64,000 nucleotides of DNA from Candidatus Moranbacteria bacterium RIFCSPHIGHO2_01_FULL_55_24 (GTDB lineage Bacteria > Patescibacteriota > Minisyncoccia > Moranbacterales > UBA1568). Position 1 is the stretch's first letter. Every line of letters starts with the position of its first letter. The notes below the pieces were generated by a model. It saw only the letters and a program-made list of their open reading frames with translations, was not told the DNA's origin and did not search any database. Location of the stretch: assembly GCA_001786575.1 (NCBI GenBank), contig MFRW01000011.1:22201-86200 (forward strand). Direction: 5' to 3'. A program made the position numbers and the translations under genes. Positions 48,140-62,347 of the stretch are shown here, piece by piece.

Positions 48140-48210
48140 GTCGGAGCGCCGGGAATCGAACCCGGTCTACACCCACCCCATGGGCGCGTACTGCCGGTAT
48201 ACTACGCTCC
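48140..48210 (-). tRNA. tRNA-Pro, anticodon GGG (CCA not encoded)
   Basis: Manual fold: acceptor CGGAGCG/CGCUCCG; D-arm GUAU-ACCGGCA-GUAC; anticodon stem CGCCC/GGGUG with loop AU-GGG-GU (U33, G37); T-arm CCGGG-UUCGAUU-CCCGG; discriminator A. Confidence 0.85.
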
Positions 48211-48257
48211 GTCCGAGCGATTGCTCGCTCTGCTACTGAAACACCCTAGCATTTCCG

Positions 48258-56070: not shown

Positions 56071-56325
56071 TTAACGGTTCATGCGCTTCTTGATTTCGCG
56101 AAGAGCTTCATCGTTGAATTTTCCGAGTTTCTTGAGACGACTGATCTCCTTGCGGATATCCACTTTGTAGAGAGCTTCGTCGCGGCGCTTGTCGCGGCTT
56201 TTCTCTGTCTGATGGAAACGCTTCTTACGAACCTGTCGCAGGACGCCCGACTGCTGGACGCGCCGTGAAAAACGGCGGATCAGGCTTTCGGCTGTCTCCT
56301 TCTCTTTCTTCTTTACTTGGATCAT
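56071..56325 (-). CDS. rpsU: 30S ribosomal protein S21
   Basis: ESLIRRFSRRVQQSGVLRQVRKKRFHQTEKSRDKRR; AAAGGAGG SD. Confidence 0.93.
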   Translation of the reverse strand: MIQVKKKEKETAESLIRRFSRRVQQSGVLRQVRKKRFHQTEKSRDKRRDEALYKVDIRKEISRLKKLGKFNDEALREIKKRMNR

Positions 56326-60507: not shown

Positions 60508-60515
60508 TCCTCCTT

Positions 60516-61061
60516 ATGAAACTCATCATCGGACTGGGAAACCCCGGAAAAGAATACGCGAACACCCGGCACAATGCCGGATTTTCTGCTTTGGAATACC
60601 TGCGGGAGACTTGGGGATTCCCGCTCTGGCAAGGGGAGAAGAAATTTCGCGGCAGCCTTTCGAGCAGCGAAAAGGATGACGAGAAGATCACTCTTTTCGA
60701 ACCGCAGACCCTGATGAACCTCTCCGGTGATGCAGTAGCCCTTATCATGCAGTTCTATAAGCTGGAACCCAAAGACATTCTGGTGCTCCATGACGATCTC
60801 GACATTCCTTCCGGAGAGCTCCGCTTCACAGAGTCTTCGCGCGCTGCCGGCCACAATGGCGTCCAGAACATCATCGACCGCCTCGGGACCCAGGACTTCA
60901 AACGCATCCGGATCGGCATCGGCAAACCGACCGAGGTCTTGGGTGCGTGCCAGCCGCATCACGATTATGTCCTAGACAGATTCACGAAGGACGAGCAGGA
61001 GAAACTTACAAGCCTTCTCCCGGAAATCGAACGGCTCGTCCTGGAAAAGATCGCCGGCTGA
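60516..61061 (+). CDS. pth: peptidyl-tRNA hydrolase
   Basis: MKLIIGLGNPGKEYANTRHNAGF. Confidence 0.95.
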   Translation: MKLIIGLGNPGKEYANTRHNAGFSALEYLRETWGFPLWQGEKKFRGSLSSSEKDDEKITLFEPQTLMNLSGDAVALIMQFYKLEPKDILVLHDDLDIPSGELRFTESSRAAGHNGVQNIIDRLGTQDFKRIRIGIGKPTEVLGACQPHHDYVLDRFTKDEQEKLTSLLPEIERLVLEKIAG

Positions 61062-61065
61062 ACAA

Positions 61066-61099
61066 CAAAAAAACCGCCCTTGAGAGGAGCGGTTTTTTG
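61066..61099. terminator. bidirectional rho-independent terminator downstream of pth
   Basis: aaaaaaACCGCCCTtgagAGGAGCGGTttttttg: A-tract, stem, T-tract. Confidence 0.6.
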
Positions 61100-61240
61100 T
61101 TCTTGAGAAAGTCTTTGACTCGATTCTATCCACAGCCGGCAGGAACCGAAGTCCCGGCGCATTTCAGCGGAAAAAGGCTAGGAGGGATGCCTTCTTCCGC
61201 CCTGTGGACAGAGGCGAACCAATGAACATTTCCGAAGTTC
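61100..61240 (-). ncRNA. candidate small structured RNA (~165 nt), bounded by the promoter at 61242-61270 and the terminator at 61066-61099; identity unknown
   Basis: No plausible ORF. The region folds into an outer stem CCACAG/CUGUGG enclosing two hairpins: GCCGG-14 nt-CCGGC, and a 12-bp GCGGAAAAAGGC/GCCUUCUUCCGC stem with a 10-nt loop. It is flanked by two intrinsic terminators. Confidence 0.3.
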
Positions 61241-61241
61241 T

Positions 61242-61270
61242 ATCCTAGCCAAACCCTCGATAATTGTCAA
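61242..61270 (-). promoter_or_regulatory. near-consensus sigma70 promoter TTGACA-17-TAGGAT firing toward lower coordinates
   Basis: Reverse complement of 61265-61270 is TTGACA; rc of 61242-61247 is TAGGAT; exact 17-bp spacer. Confidence 0.5.
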
Positions 61271-61271
61271 G

Positions 61272-61305
61272 TAAAAACCCCGCAGAAAGCGGGGTTTTCT
61301 TTTTG
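61272..61305. terminator. bidirectional rho-independent terminator downstream of rplY
   Basis: aaaaCCCCGCagaaaGCGGGGttttcttttt. Confidence 0.65.
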
Positions 61306-61318
61306 AGGAGATCTCCGA

Positions 61319-61993
61319 TTATTCGGGCTTGGCTTCGCCTTCCGGAGCTACCTCTTCCTTCACGACACCCTCTACCTTAGTGACATCAGCCTCGACTTTC
61401 TCGTCGAGCGCAGCCATCTCGGCATCGGTGCGCGGCGGCTCTACCAGCGCTATGGTCGTCTCCAGTTCTCCAAGGAGAGTGACTCCCTTCGGAAGCGCGA
61501 TATCCTTGATCTGGATATGGTCTTCAAACGTCTTCAGGATCGAAAGATCGATAGGAAGCGTGTGCGGGAGATCCTTCGGCAGACAGCTGACCAGCACTTC
61601 TTCGAGCGTCTTCACGAGGATGCCTCCATGCTCGCGGACTGCCGGCGCTTCGCCGATGAATTCCAACGGCACATGCGTTTCCAGCTCTTCATCCATGCGT
61701 ACCTGGAAAAAATCGACATGTGTGAAACGGCTGGAAAGCGGATCGAAAGTCACGTCGTGGATAATCGCATTCAAAGCCTTGCCCTTTTCCTGCGCGAGGC
61801 TCAAGATGCTGCTCTGGCCAGCCTCTTTGAAAATCTTCGAGAAAGGCAGGTAGTCCAGCCAGAAGAGCTGGTTCTCTGTGCCGCGCCCGTATATGACGGC
61901 CGGGATTTTCCCTTCCTTGCGGGAGCGTTCCAATTCCTTGGTGCTCACCTTTTCGCGATTCTTGACTGTAAGCGTAAATTCCTGCATATACAA
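61319..61993 (-). CDS. rplY: 50S ribosomal protein L25/general stress protein Ctc (long form)
   Basis: MQEFTLTVKNREKVSTKELERSRKEGKIPAVIYGRG with an acidic C-terminal extension. Confidence 0.9.
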   Translation of the reverse strand: MYMQEFTLTVKNREKVSTKELERSRKEGKIPAVIYGRGTENQLFWLDYLPFSKIFKEAGQSSILSLAQEKGKALNAIIHDVTFDPLSSRFTHVDFFQVRMDEELETHVPLEFIGEAPAVREHGGILVKTLEEVLVSCLPKDLPHTLPIDLSILKTFEDHIQIKDIALPKGVTLLGELETTIALVEPPRTDAEMAALDEKVEADVTKVEGVVKEEVAPEGEAKPE

Positions 61994-62026: not shown

Positions 62027-62347
62027 TTAGAAAAGGGCGCTGATATCGCCCGTGTGCCCTTTGAGAAATTCATGGACTTCGAGCACGTCATCCAAGGAAA
62101 CCGGGTCGCCTTGGTAGAGCGCTCGCGCTTCTGCCTGTTCCAAATCCGTGGGTACCCCCAGGCTCATCACGCCGAGCTGCCCCAAAGAGAGGAAGACGAG
62201 CGATGAAGCGCCGCAACCGTCACAGGAAAGATGAAGCGCTGTCCGCTTTTCATCCTCTTCTAAAACCACCATCTTGGCAGGACGATGCTTTTTGTTGCAT
62301 ACCATGCAACGAACCAGTGACTGCAGATTCTCAAGCGAGAGTTTCAT
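62027..62347 (-). CDS. hypothetical small zinc-ribbon protein
   Basis: Cys pairs CMVCNKK ... CDGCG, 106 aa. Confidence 0.45.
   Translation of the reverse strand: MKLSLENLQSLVRCMVCNKKHRPAKMVVLEEDEKRTALHLSCDGCGASSLVFLSLGQLGVMSLGVPTDLEQAEARALYQGDPVSLDDVLEVHEFLKGHTGDISALF

Follow-up and report, generated by a model that had tools for sequence, protein, structure and literature searches.

The closest described counterparts of the RNA analysed here are small RNAs (sRNAs) with C-rich motifs. 6C RNA (Rfam RF01066) is found throughout the Actinobacteria, and its C-rich hairpin loops are thought to pair with G-rich mRNA sites; RsaE/RoxS (RF01820) is an sRNA of Bacillota. The 3' tail of 16S rRNA, GAUCACCUCCUUA, carries the anti-Shine-Dalgarno (anti-SD) sequence CCUCCU. 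RsaE/RoxS has been reported to bind Shine-Dalgarno (SD) sequences through its C-rich motifs, and presentation of such a motif in a loop aids pairing (PMC6158497). Here we describe a locus within 64,000 nucleotides of DNA from Candidatus Moranbacteria bacterium RIFCSPHIGHO2_01_FULL_55_24 (Patescibacteriota; assembly GCA_001786575.1, contig MFRW01000011.1, positions 22,201 to 86,200; hereafter the window). The locus occupies the 257-nt gap between the convergent genes pth and rplY, and it is very probably a gene, conserved and with a promoter of its own, for a structured non-coding RNA. In the literature, we found no described small RNAs, regulatory or housekeeping, of Patescibacteria, also termed the candidate phyla radiation (CPR).

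A sequence-only reading of the window had singled out this gap as a candidate sRNA locus lying between two strong bidirectional intrinsic terminators, preceded by a near-consensus minus-strand promoter and devoid of a credible open reading frame (ORF). All of these elements were recovered at the positions given in that reading (Table 1). The promoter, TTGACA-17-TAGGAT (61270-61242), matches the consensus at 10 of 12 positions; six promoter-like sites were found on the two strands of 6 kb of the window, against 2.7 expected, and the match in the window is not significant alone. It becomes significant because it is conserved: 47 of 51 homologous copies carry TTGACA-17-TAnnnT with at least 9 of 12 matches within 100 nt upstream, and 33 of the 51 score 11-12 of 12. 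The rplY terminator, which follows the rplY stop codon directly and ends 4 nt 5' of the -35 box, forms the upstream boundary of the locus. Both terminators (hairpins at 61274-61298 and 61098-61068) are flanked by A-runs and T-runs and look bidirectional. The stem of the second one (61092-61074) is better on the minus strand, where it contains one G-U pair, than on the plus strand, where a C-A mismatch takes its place; with its U7 tract (61098-61067), this hairpin reaches to within 3-6 nt of the pth stop codon. The predicted full transcript folds at -74.6 kcal/mol (z = -5.5), and, with pth convergent and a terminator of its own, the RNA is not the leader of a neighbouring gene in the window. 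A comparable hairpin and U-run was found downstream of 27 of the 51 homologues. The main Moraniibacteriota group has no such terminator, so that the 3' end must form otherwise there.

In L018, L036, L037, L050 and L078 (loci of the homologue collection are given by their numbers), a conserved AUCGUACCU-like stretch directly follows the -10 box, where the transcript is predicted to begin. It occurs in copies of the Moraniibacteriota type, some of which have a variable insertion of 30-45 nt before the closing helix, and it could be a second functional single-stranded site.

The 116-nt conserved core of the minus strand has a minimum free energy (MFE) of -54.1 kcal/mol, compared with -35.4 +/- 3.7 kcal/mol in dinucleotide shuffles (z = -5.0; 0 of 200 as good), whereas the plus strand of the same region reaches -40.4 kcal/mol (z = -1.7). 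In the architecture shared by the family, a closing helix of up to 25 bp (P1) leads to a three-way junction that bears two hairpins (P2 and P3), within a core of 116-135 nt. The CCACAG...CUGUGG helix noticed in the sequence-only reading is the top of P1. A hairpin described there as 12 bp long is indeed present as P2, but comprises 13 bp on the minus strand when G-U pairs are included; the stem is fully paired only on this strand, one G-U pair being an A-C mismatch on the other. A GCCGG/CCGGC hairpin had been placed at the right position, but the MFE structure there is the UUCG-capped P3 listed in Table 1, which is shorter than the P3 of most relatives. The P2 loop is unpaired in both the MFE and the centroid folds.

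Covariation among homologues, a check that the sequence-only reading had proposed, was found in all three helices. In the family, P1 comprises 25 pairs, is 94% paired and shows compensatory changes in all 25; it was the only helix that RNAalifold recovered from a MAFFT alignment of 46 members, again with compensatory change in every pair, P2 and P3 requiring a hand-set structure and model-based realignment. All nine modelled pairs of P2 covary, with compensatory changes visible directly among the window copy, L081 and L083, and each of the 14 pairs of P3 shows compensatory changes. Over P1, P2 and P3 together, 82.6% of the cells in the MAFFT alignment are paired and 47 of 48 pairs have changed on both sides, with a covariation score of 0.589 against 0.261 in shuffled alignments (0 of 500 reach the observed value) and at most 0.236 when the partners were slid. 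The corresponding figures for a model-fitted alignment of 48 members are 87.5% paired cells, double changes in 48 of 48 pairs and a score of 0.650 against 0.258 (shuffled) and at most 0.204 (slid); this alignment leans towards the structure, and the MAFFT figures are the conservative ones. Two A positions of the junction segment J2/3 are conserved as well (alignment columns 78 and 79, with A in 43 and 46 of 48 members, respectively). A scan for additional covarying column pairs, such as a pseudoknot or an extension of P2, returned only trivial purine-pyrimidine correlations.

The transcribed strand could also be assigned. Among the 48 members, G-U and U-G pairs number 316 versus 72 A-C and C-A combinations, and the covariance models score the sense strand far above the antisense strand (for example, 129 versus 31 bits). 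Together with the one-sided promoter, these observations fix the transcribed strand, which is the minus strand in the window. No reading frame is conserved among the homologues: their longest sense ORFs (median 29 aa; TTG or GTG starts for the most part) agree neither in frame nor in start codon or length. In the window itself, the sense ORFs of the region span 24-30 aa with TTG starts, and a 65-aa ATG ORF (60965-61162) crosses the terminator and runs antisense into pth. A small-peptide reading, considered for a 30-aa TTG ORF, for the 21-aa MFIGSPLSTGRKKASLLAFFR (picked by eye) and for the 65-aa ORF, was rejected, none of them having a conserved counterpart in the homologues. In summary, the conserved promoter, the covariation of three helices, the G-U excess on the minus strand and the lack of a conserved ORF uphold the proposal of an independently transcribed, structured sRNA.

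Table 1. Features of the sRNA locus and of other genes mentioned in the text (positions in the window; R1 and R2, covariance models built from 10 and 46 sequences, respectively)
Feature	Position	Strand	Basis or remark
pth	60516-61061	(+)	last base of stop codon at 61061
sRNA intrinsic terminator	61062-61098	(-)	CCGCUC/GGGCGG stem + U7; on the other strand serves pth
Predicted primary transcript, ~170 nt	61064-61235	(-)	start from -10 box, 3' end in U-tract
Conserved core (P1, P2, P3, three-way junction)	61111-61226	(-)	R1 73 bits, R2 61.4 bits
P1 3' strand, CUGUGGAUAGA..CGAGUCAA	61115-61135	(-)	MFE, family covariation
P3 hairpin, GC.GGGAC-UUCG-GUUCC.GC	61139-61158	(-)	MFE
Junction J2/3, GAAAUGC	61159-61165	(-)	two A positions conserved in family
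P2 hairpin, 13-bp stem GGCGGAAGAAGGC/GCCUUUUUCCGCU, 10-nt loop	61166-61201	(-)	MFE
P2 loop AUCCCUCCUA, anti-SD-like motif, proposed functional site	61179-61188	(-)	family conservation
P1 5' strand, UUGGUUCG..UCUGUCCACAG	61202-61222	(-)	MFE
-10 box TAGGAT	61242-61247	(-)	homologues: TATAAT, TATACT or other TAnnnT, equal spacing
-35 box TTGACA	61265-61270	(-)	conserved in homologues with 17-nt spacer
rplY intrinsic terminator	61274-61305	(-)	CCCCGC/GCGGGG stem (hairpin 61274-61298) + U-run
rplY	61319-61993	(-)	stop codon at 61319
Gene for 106-aa protein	62027-62347	(-)	between rplY and gyrB
T4SS coupling-protein-like gene, 824 aa	3541-6015	(-)	TrwB/TraG domains
tRNA-Pro(GGG)	48141-48211	(-)	ARAGORN call
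bS21 gene	56071-56325	(-)

The only invariant single-stranded sequence of the family is the P2 loop, which measures 10-14 nt and has the consensus (A/U)CCCUCCU(U)A. CCUCC is present in 47 of 48 aligned members, and each of the 46 anchored loops contains CCUCCU. Subgroups differ in what precedes CCUCC (AACA, AUCAU, GGAA or GUCAC).

Homologues were recovered by several routes. Seven GTDB loci with a convergent rplY were reached through Pth, and five of the seven contain a conserved element of ~120 nt with a TTGACA/TATAAT promoter on the rplY-sense strand and an identical CCCUCCUA loop. A metagenome scan based on L25 alignment yielded closer relatives (L081, L084, L083, L085, L100, L103 and L093), each with its own promoter and terminator. 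Downstream of pth in many other Patescibacteria loci, model R1 detected copies on which it had not been trained, the best at 44-50 bits (L079, L060, L036 and L043), and model R2 found the RNA in 45 of 80 pth loci from metagenome-assembled genomes (MAGs) of Patescibacteria and in 7 of 80 L25-anchored metagenome loci, with untrained copies in L008 (91 bits), L016 (70 bits), L026, L071 and L056. A scan of viral contigs with the loop pattern gave 19 pattern matches and no model match. The hosts, as labelled, include Moraniibacteriota, Paceibacterota, Doudnabacteria, Elulimicrobium and unclassified Patescibacteria; going by these labels, the RNA family is widespread and spans several candidate phyla of the Patescibacteria group. 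Consequently, of the novel lineage-specific RNA that the sequence-only reading had offered as one option, the novelty stands but the narrow lineage specificity does not.

A few loci carry other host labels. L070 (DATGZC010000003.1, 'Bathyarchaeia archaeon') and third-party annotation (TPA) MAG loci labelled 'Bdellovibrionales' or 'Micavibrio' contain a CPR-like pth together with the CPR sRNA, and the L070 copy is of the same type as the Moraniibacteriota copy in L060. These labels are not credible, and the contigs look mis-binned or mislabelled.

The RNA is convergent with pth wherever both lie in the locus, that is, in 45 of 45 pth loci and in L081, L083 and L085; L100 and L103 contain no pth within the locus. 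Most loci have 6-120 nt between the RNA and pth, and in others 0.3-2.5 kb of heterogeneous small genes intervene. In the window and most relatives, no gene lies downstream of the RNA because pth is convergent. The covariance models found no sRNA copy in the convergent pth/rplY gap of L011, L082 and L086. These three are the closest relatives by L25 (59-67% identity), and the gaps of L011 and L082 hold unrelated hairpins; in their lineages, the sRNA gene has been lost or moved.

The upstream neighbours vary. In the clade of the window it is rplY, whereas a divergent dprA lies upstream in 5 of the 14 loci with a reported upstream ORF (L043, L060, L061, L068 and L074), the DprA/Smf assignment being confirmed by Pfam DNA_processg_A and DprA_WH matches for three of the five. 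This arrangement suggests an older dprA / sRNA / pth order that was replaced by rplY / sRNA / pth in the window's clade. About 12 loci have an SD-led ORF (AAGGAGG) 20-160 nt after P1 with no terminator between. Such ORFs were seen in L016, L018, L020, L026, L037, L043, L055, L056 and L071 and encode small membrane proteins, a helix-turn-helix (HTH) protein and others. Looking both downstream and upstream, we found no gene that consistently partners the RNA; the ORFs downstream are heterogeneous.

The family was then compared with described RNAs. An Rfam scan, also proposed in the sequence-only reading, was run in a narrow, permissive form (Rfam 15, E <= 10) on three divergent members, namely the window copy, L037 and L061. 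It gave no family match: 6S RNA (RF00013 and relatives), signal recognition particle (SRP) RNA (RF00169), transfer-messenger RNA (tmRNA), RNase P, 5S, 6C and RsaE were without a match, and the scans listed only terminator look-alikes and noise from plant microRNA precursors (long hairpins), far below the family thresholds. Scans in gathering mode of the whole window and seven loci returned nothing and carry little weight, as this mode missed a genuine tRNA. Judged by these scans, the RNA family is absent from Rfam 15.

Like the RNA described here, RsaE/RoxS is a stand-alone sRNA equipped with a promoter and a terminator of its own, and its conservation is at about the phylum level. C-rich motifs that are left unpaired in RsaE/RoxS, one of which lies in a hairpin loop, bind G-rich SD regions and block initiation (PMC6158497); the likeness of the Patescibacteria RNA in this respect extends only to the complementarity of CCUCCU with GGAGG. 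RsaE/RoxS acts without Hfq, as the Patescibacteria RNA would too. There is, however, no sequence or covariance-model similarity, and the RNA is not a member of that family: RsaE/RoxS has two to four CCCC motifs rather than a single CCCUCCU loop matching the full anti-SD, and it does not share the 25-bp closing helix, the three-way junction or the fixed pth synteny. 6C RNA is likewise a phylum-wide small RNA with a C-rich hairpin loop, but belongs to another phylum and has two hairpins with loops of at least six C residues instead of one CCUCCU loop in a three-way junction; the RNA is not a member of this family either. With the 16S rRNA 3' tail, the family shares the invariant loop core CCUCCU, often CCUCCUUA, which is the anti-SD itself; in contrast to the tail, where it stands at a free 3' end, this sequence is enclosed in the hairpin loop of a 130-nt RNA; the loop motif has an additional C in front (CCCUCC), and the residues upstream vary.

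The sequence-only reading had left 6S-like or SRP-like identity undecided, and neither is borne out. The RNA recalls 6S RNA in that it is small and looks abundant, is closed by a long terminal helix, has a strong promoter and is broadly distributed; unlike 6S RNA, it forms a three-way junction with a J3/1 segment of 2-4 nt and a core of 116-135 nt instead of a rod of 150-200 nt with a two-sided central bubble, and its conserved anti-SD loop has no role in 6S function. Small SRP (4.5S) RNA is similar in size and also has a long closing helix, but the family lacks a GNRA-capped helix 8 and conserved symmetric or asymmetric internal loops; its P3 loops read UAAU, GAUU, CUUG or UUCG, and never form a GNRA tetraloop.

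Regarding function, we tentatively propose, as the likeliest explanation, a trans-acting sRNA whose anti-SD loop pairs with the GGAGG sites of mRNAs and competes with 30S subunits. The stand-alone gene would be transcribed from its own sigma-70-type promoter into an RNA of ~170 nt ending at its own intrinsic terminator. The exposed P2 loop would base-pair in trans with GGAGG-type SD sequences, this pairing would compete with the 16S rRNA tail and 30S subunits and thereby lower translation initiation, and the long P1 would protect both RNA ends from exonucleases. Taken as a whole, this statement has in our judgement somewhat less than an even chance of being correct. The inferred SD-pairing mechanism is that by which the C-rich loops of RsaE/RoxS work. 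SDs of the AAGGAGG type are used by genes in the window and in relatives, including the ORFs that follow the RNA in some loci. In the window, the bS21 gene has a near-perfect SD, AAAGGAGGU, and the best match to the sRNA loop is the AAAAGGAGGGUUC-AUG of a gene for a protein like type IV secretion system (T4SS) coupling proteins. pth itself was considered as a target of the loop and rejected: in nearly all loci, the region where its translation begins is without an SD, and the duplex energies there are weak.

Several observations weigh against a trans-acting, SD-pairing sRNA. A seed complementary to a generic SD would be without obvious specificity for its targets; the neighbouring genes pth and rplY have no SDs and hence are not targets. 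Conservation across several candidate phyla and fixed synteny with pth are unusual for base-pairing sRNAs and more typical of housekeeping or protein-binding RNAs, and both the conserved junction nucleotides and the 25-bp P1 would be superfluous for simple seed pairing. Moreover, the ends of the transcript are inferred, the start (~61235) from the -10 box and the 3' end from the U-tract, and about half of the family has no recognisable intrinsic terminator. Finally, in the ~12 loci with an SD-led ORF, the sRNA may double as a 5' leader or form a segment of one.

The strongest alternative is that the RNA acts as a decoy or mimic for the 3' tail of 16S rRNA. The P2 loop would then bind a protein that normally recognises the tail (such as the KH domain of Era, bS21, bS1 or a 3'-end-processing RNase), so that the RNA titrates or regulates 30S maturation or initiation rather than pairing with mRNAs. 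The likeness of the loop to the tail lends this explanation some appeal: invariably, CCUCCU has A(U/C)C and U(A) at its sides, and some loops read GGAUCAUCCCUCCUAUUUC. Conservation throughout the phylum also suits a housekeeping RNA of the ribonucleoprotein (RNP) type, as do promoters close to the consensus, the 25-bp P1 and the conserved bases of the junction. We nevertheless consider it unlikely, as no syntenic protein partner was found, the flanking genes vary except for pth (with DprA upstream in some loci), and the variable residues 5' of CCUCC make the likeness to the tail weak beyond the anti-SD. The conserved position next to pth would instead be explained by a link in cis: the RNA or its transcription would act on the convergent pth, whether by way of a terminator that serves both genes, by transcriptional interference or by antisense transcripts that run into the 3' end of pth. 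The RNA is always convergent with pth and often lies just 6-30 nt from its stop codon without a separate terminator, and a single hairpin terminates both genes in the window. However, a strong terminator stops the RNA before pth in the window and about half of the copies, unrelated genes of 0.3-2.5 kb separate the two in other loci, L100 and L103 have the RNA without pth, and neither the invariant CCUCCU loop nor the covarying P2 and P3 would be accounted for; we regard this explanation as distinctly improbable.

A divergent 6S RNA, acting as a mimic for RNA polymerase, or a small SRP RNA would be expected to show the strong, constitutive-looking promoter, long terminal helix and wide distribution observed here, and neither was seen elsewhere in the 64-kb window, a weak negative given that the gathering-mode scan missed a tRNA. 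Three divergent members without an Rfam match at E <= 10, the three-way junction with its 2-4-nt J3/1, loops of CCUCCU or UAAU/GAUU/CUUG/UUCG in place of GNRA and helix-8 internal loops, and, for 6S, the short core make either identity very unlikely. We assign equally little probability to a relic 5' leader: a cis-regulatory anti-SD element whose downstream gene has disappeared from the lineage of the window. The ~12 loci with a strong AAGGAGG-SD ORF 20-160 nt after P1 and no terminator would suit it, as the loop could sequester the SD; but those ORFs are heterogeneous, at least 25 loci without a downstream gene keep the promoter, structure and loop under selection, and CCUCC sits in the loop of a stable hairpin and has no conserved alternative pairing partner. 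The least probable explanation, to which we give almost no weight, is a DNA-level palindrome, either an inverted repeat resembling a miniature inverted-repeat transposable element (MITE) or a protein-binding site. The 25-bp terminal inverted repeat does give weak model matches on both strands; yet there is a single copy in the window, at an orthologous position across taxa, the 316:72 excess of G-U over A-C would be meaningless for DNA, the promoter is conserved on one strand only, and the internal helices P2 and P3 covary.

Concerning the surroundings, the same contig occurs, identical, in three groundwater-type samples (JGI 3300002502, SRR2090153 and ERZ4903070), in which the pth-rplY gap is unannotated; relatives were met in the ERZ129xxxx assemblies from Hainich. 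Gene calls on it comprise LytR_cpsA_psr, Pept_tRNA_hydro, Ribosomal_L25p, a 106-aa hypothetical protein and GyrB. The best matches of the window Pth are from MAGs of Moraniibacteriota, Parcubacteria and 'Patescibacteria group', with at most 54% identity. The covariance models find exactly one sRNA copy in the 64-kb window. The 106-aa protein has CxxC...CxxC spacing and no Pfam match, and by eye it seemingly occurs in the L085 sequence too. The tRNA-Pro(GGG) gene scored 46.6 bits in the narrow Rfam scan (gathering threshold 29) and was missed by the gathering-mode scan of the whole window, which gave zero matches, so that other structured RNAs in the window may be unreported. The AUG of the window pth is preceded by UCCUCCUU (60508-60515, plus strand), which is anti-SD-like and not SD-like. 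In relatives, pth is usually without an SD, and a TATACT or TATAAT box lies ~7 nt 5' of the ATG in L061, L066, L069 and L074, which suggests leaderless pth mRNAs in these relatives.

A large part of bacterial diversity belongs to the Patescibacteria, whose genomes are reduced and whose ribosomes are unusual. The present analysis defines an RNA family that covariation supports and that offers, in its anti-SD loop, a clear site for testing, together with a usable covariance model; convergence with pth supplies a fixed genomic landmark that makes the RNA easy to find. The family merits an entry in RNA databases, so that the pth-rplY and pth-dprA gaps of CPR genomes are no longer annotated as empty. 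If the loop competes with ribosomes for SD sites, or serves as a decoy for a factor that recognises the 16S tail, the RNA would give ultra-small symbiotic bacteria a simple global handle on translation. On a more speculative reading, which is possible but rather doubtful, it would be a housekeeping RNA of Patescibacteria equal in rank to 6S or SRP RNA. As an abundant RNA it would imitate the 3' tail of 16S rRNA, in a way that globally gates SD-dependent initiation, for example during dormancy or host detachment, or that decoys a tail-binding factor (Era, bS21 or a tail-processing RNase). If this were true, the RNA would add a hitherto unrecognised level to translation control in a superphylum whose ribosomes are reduced.

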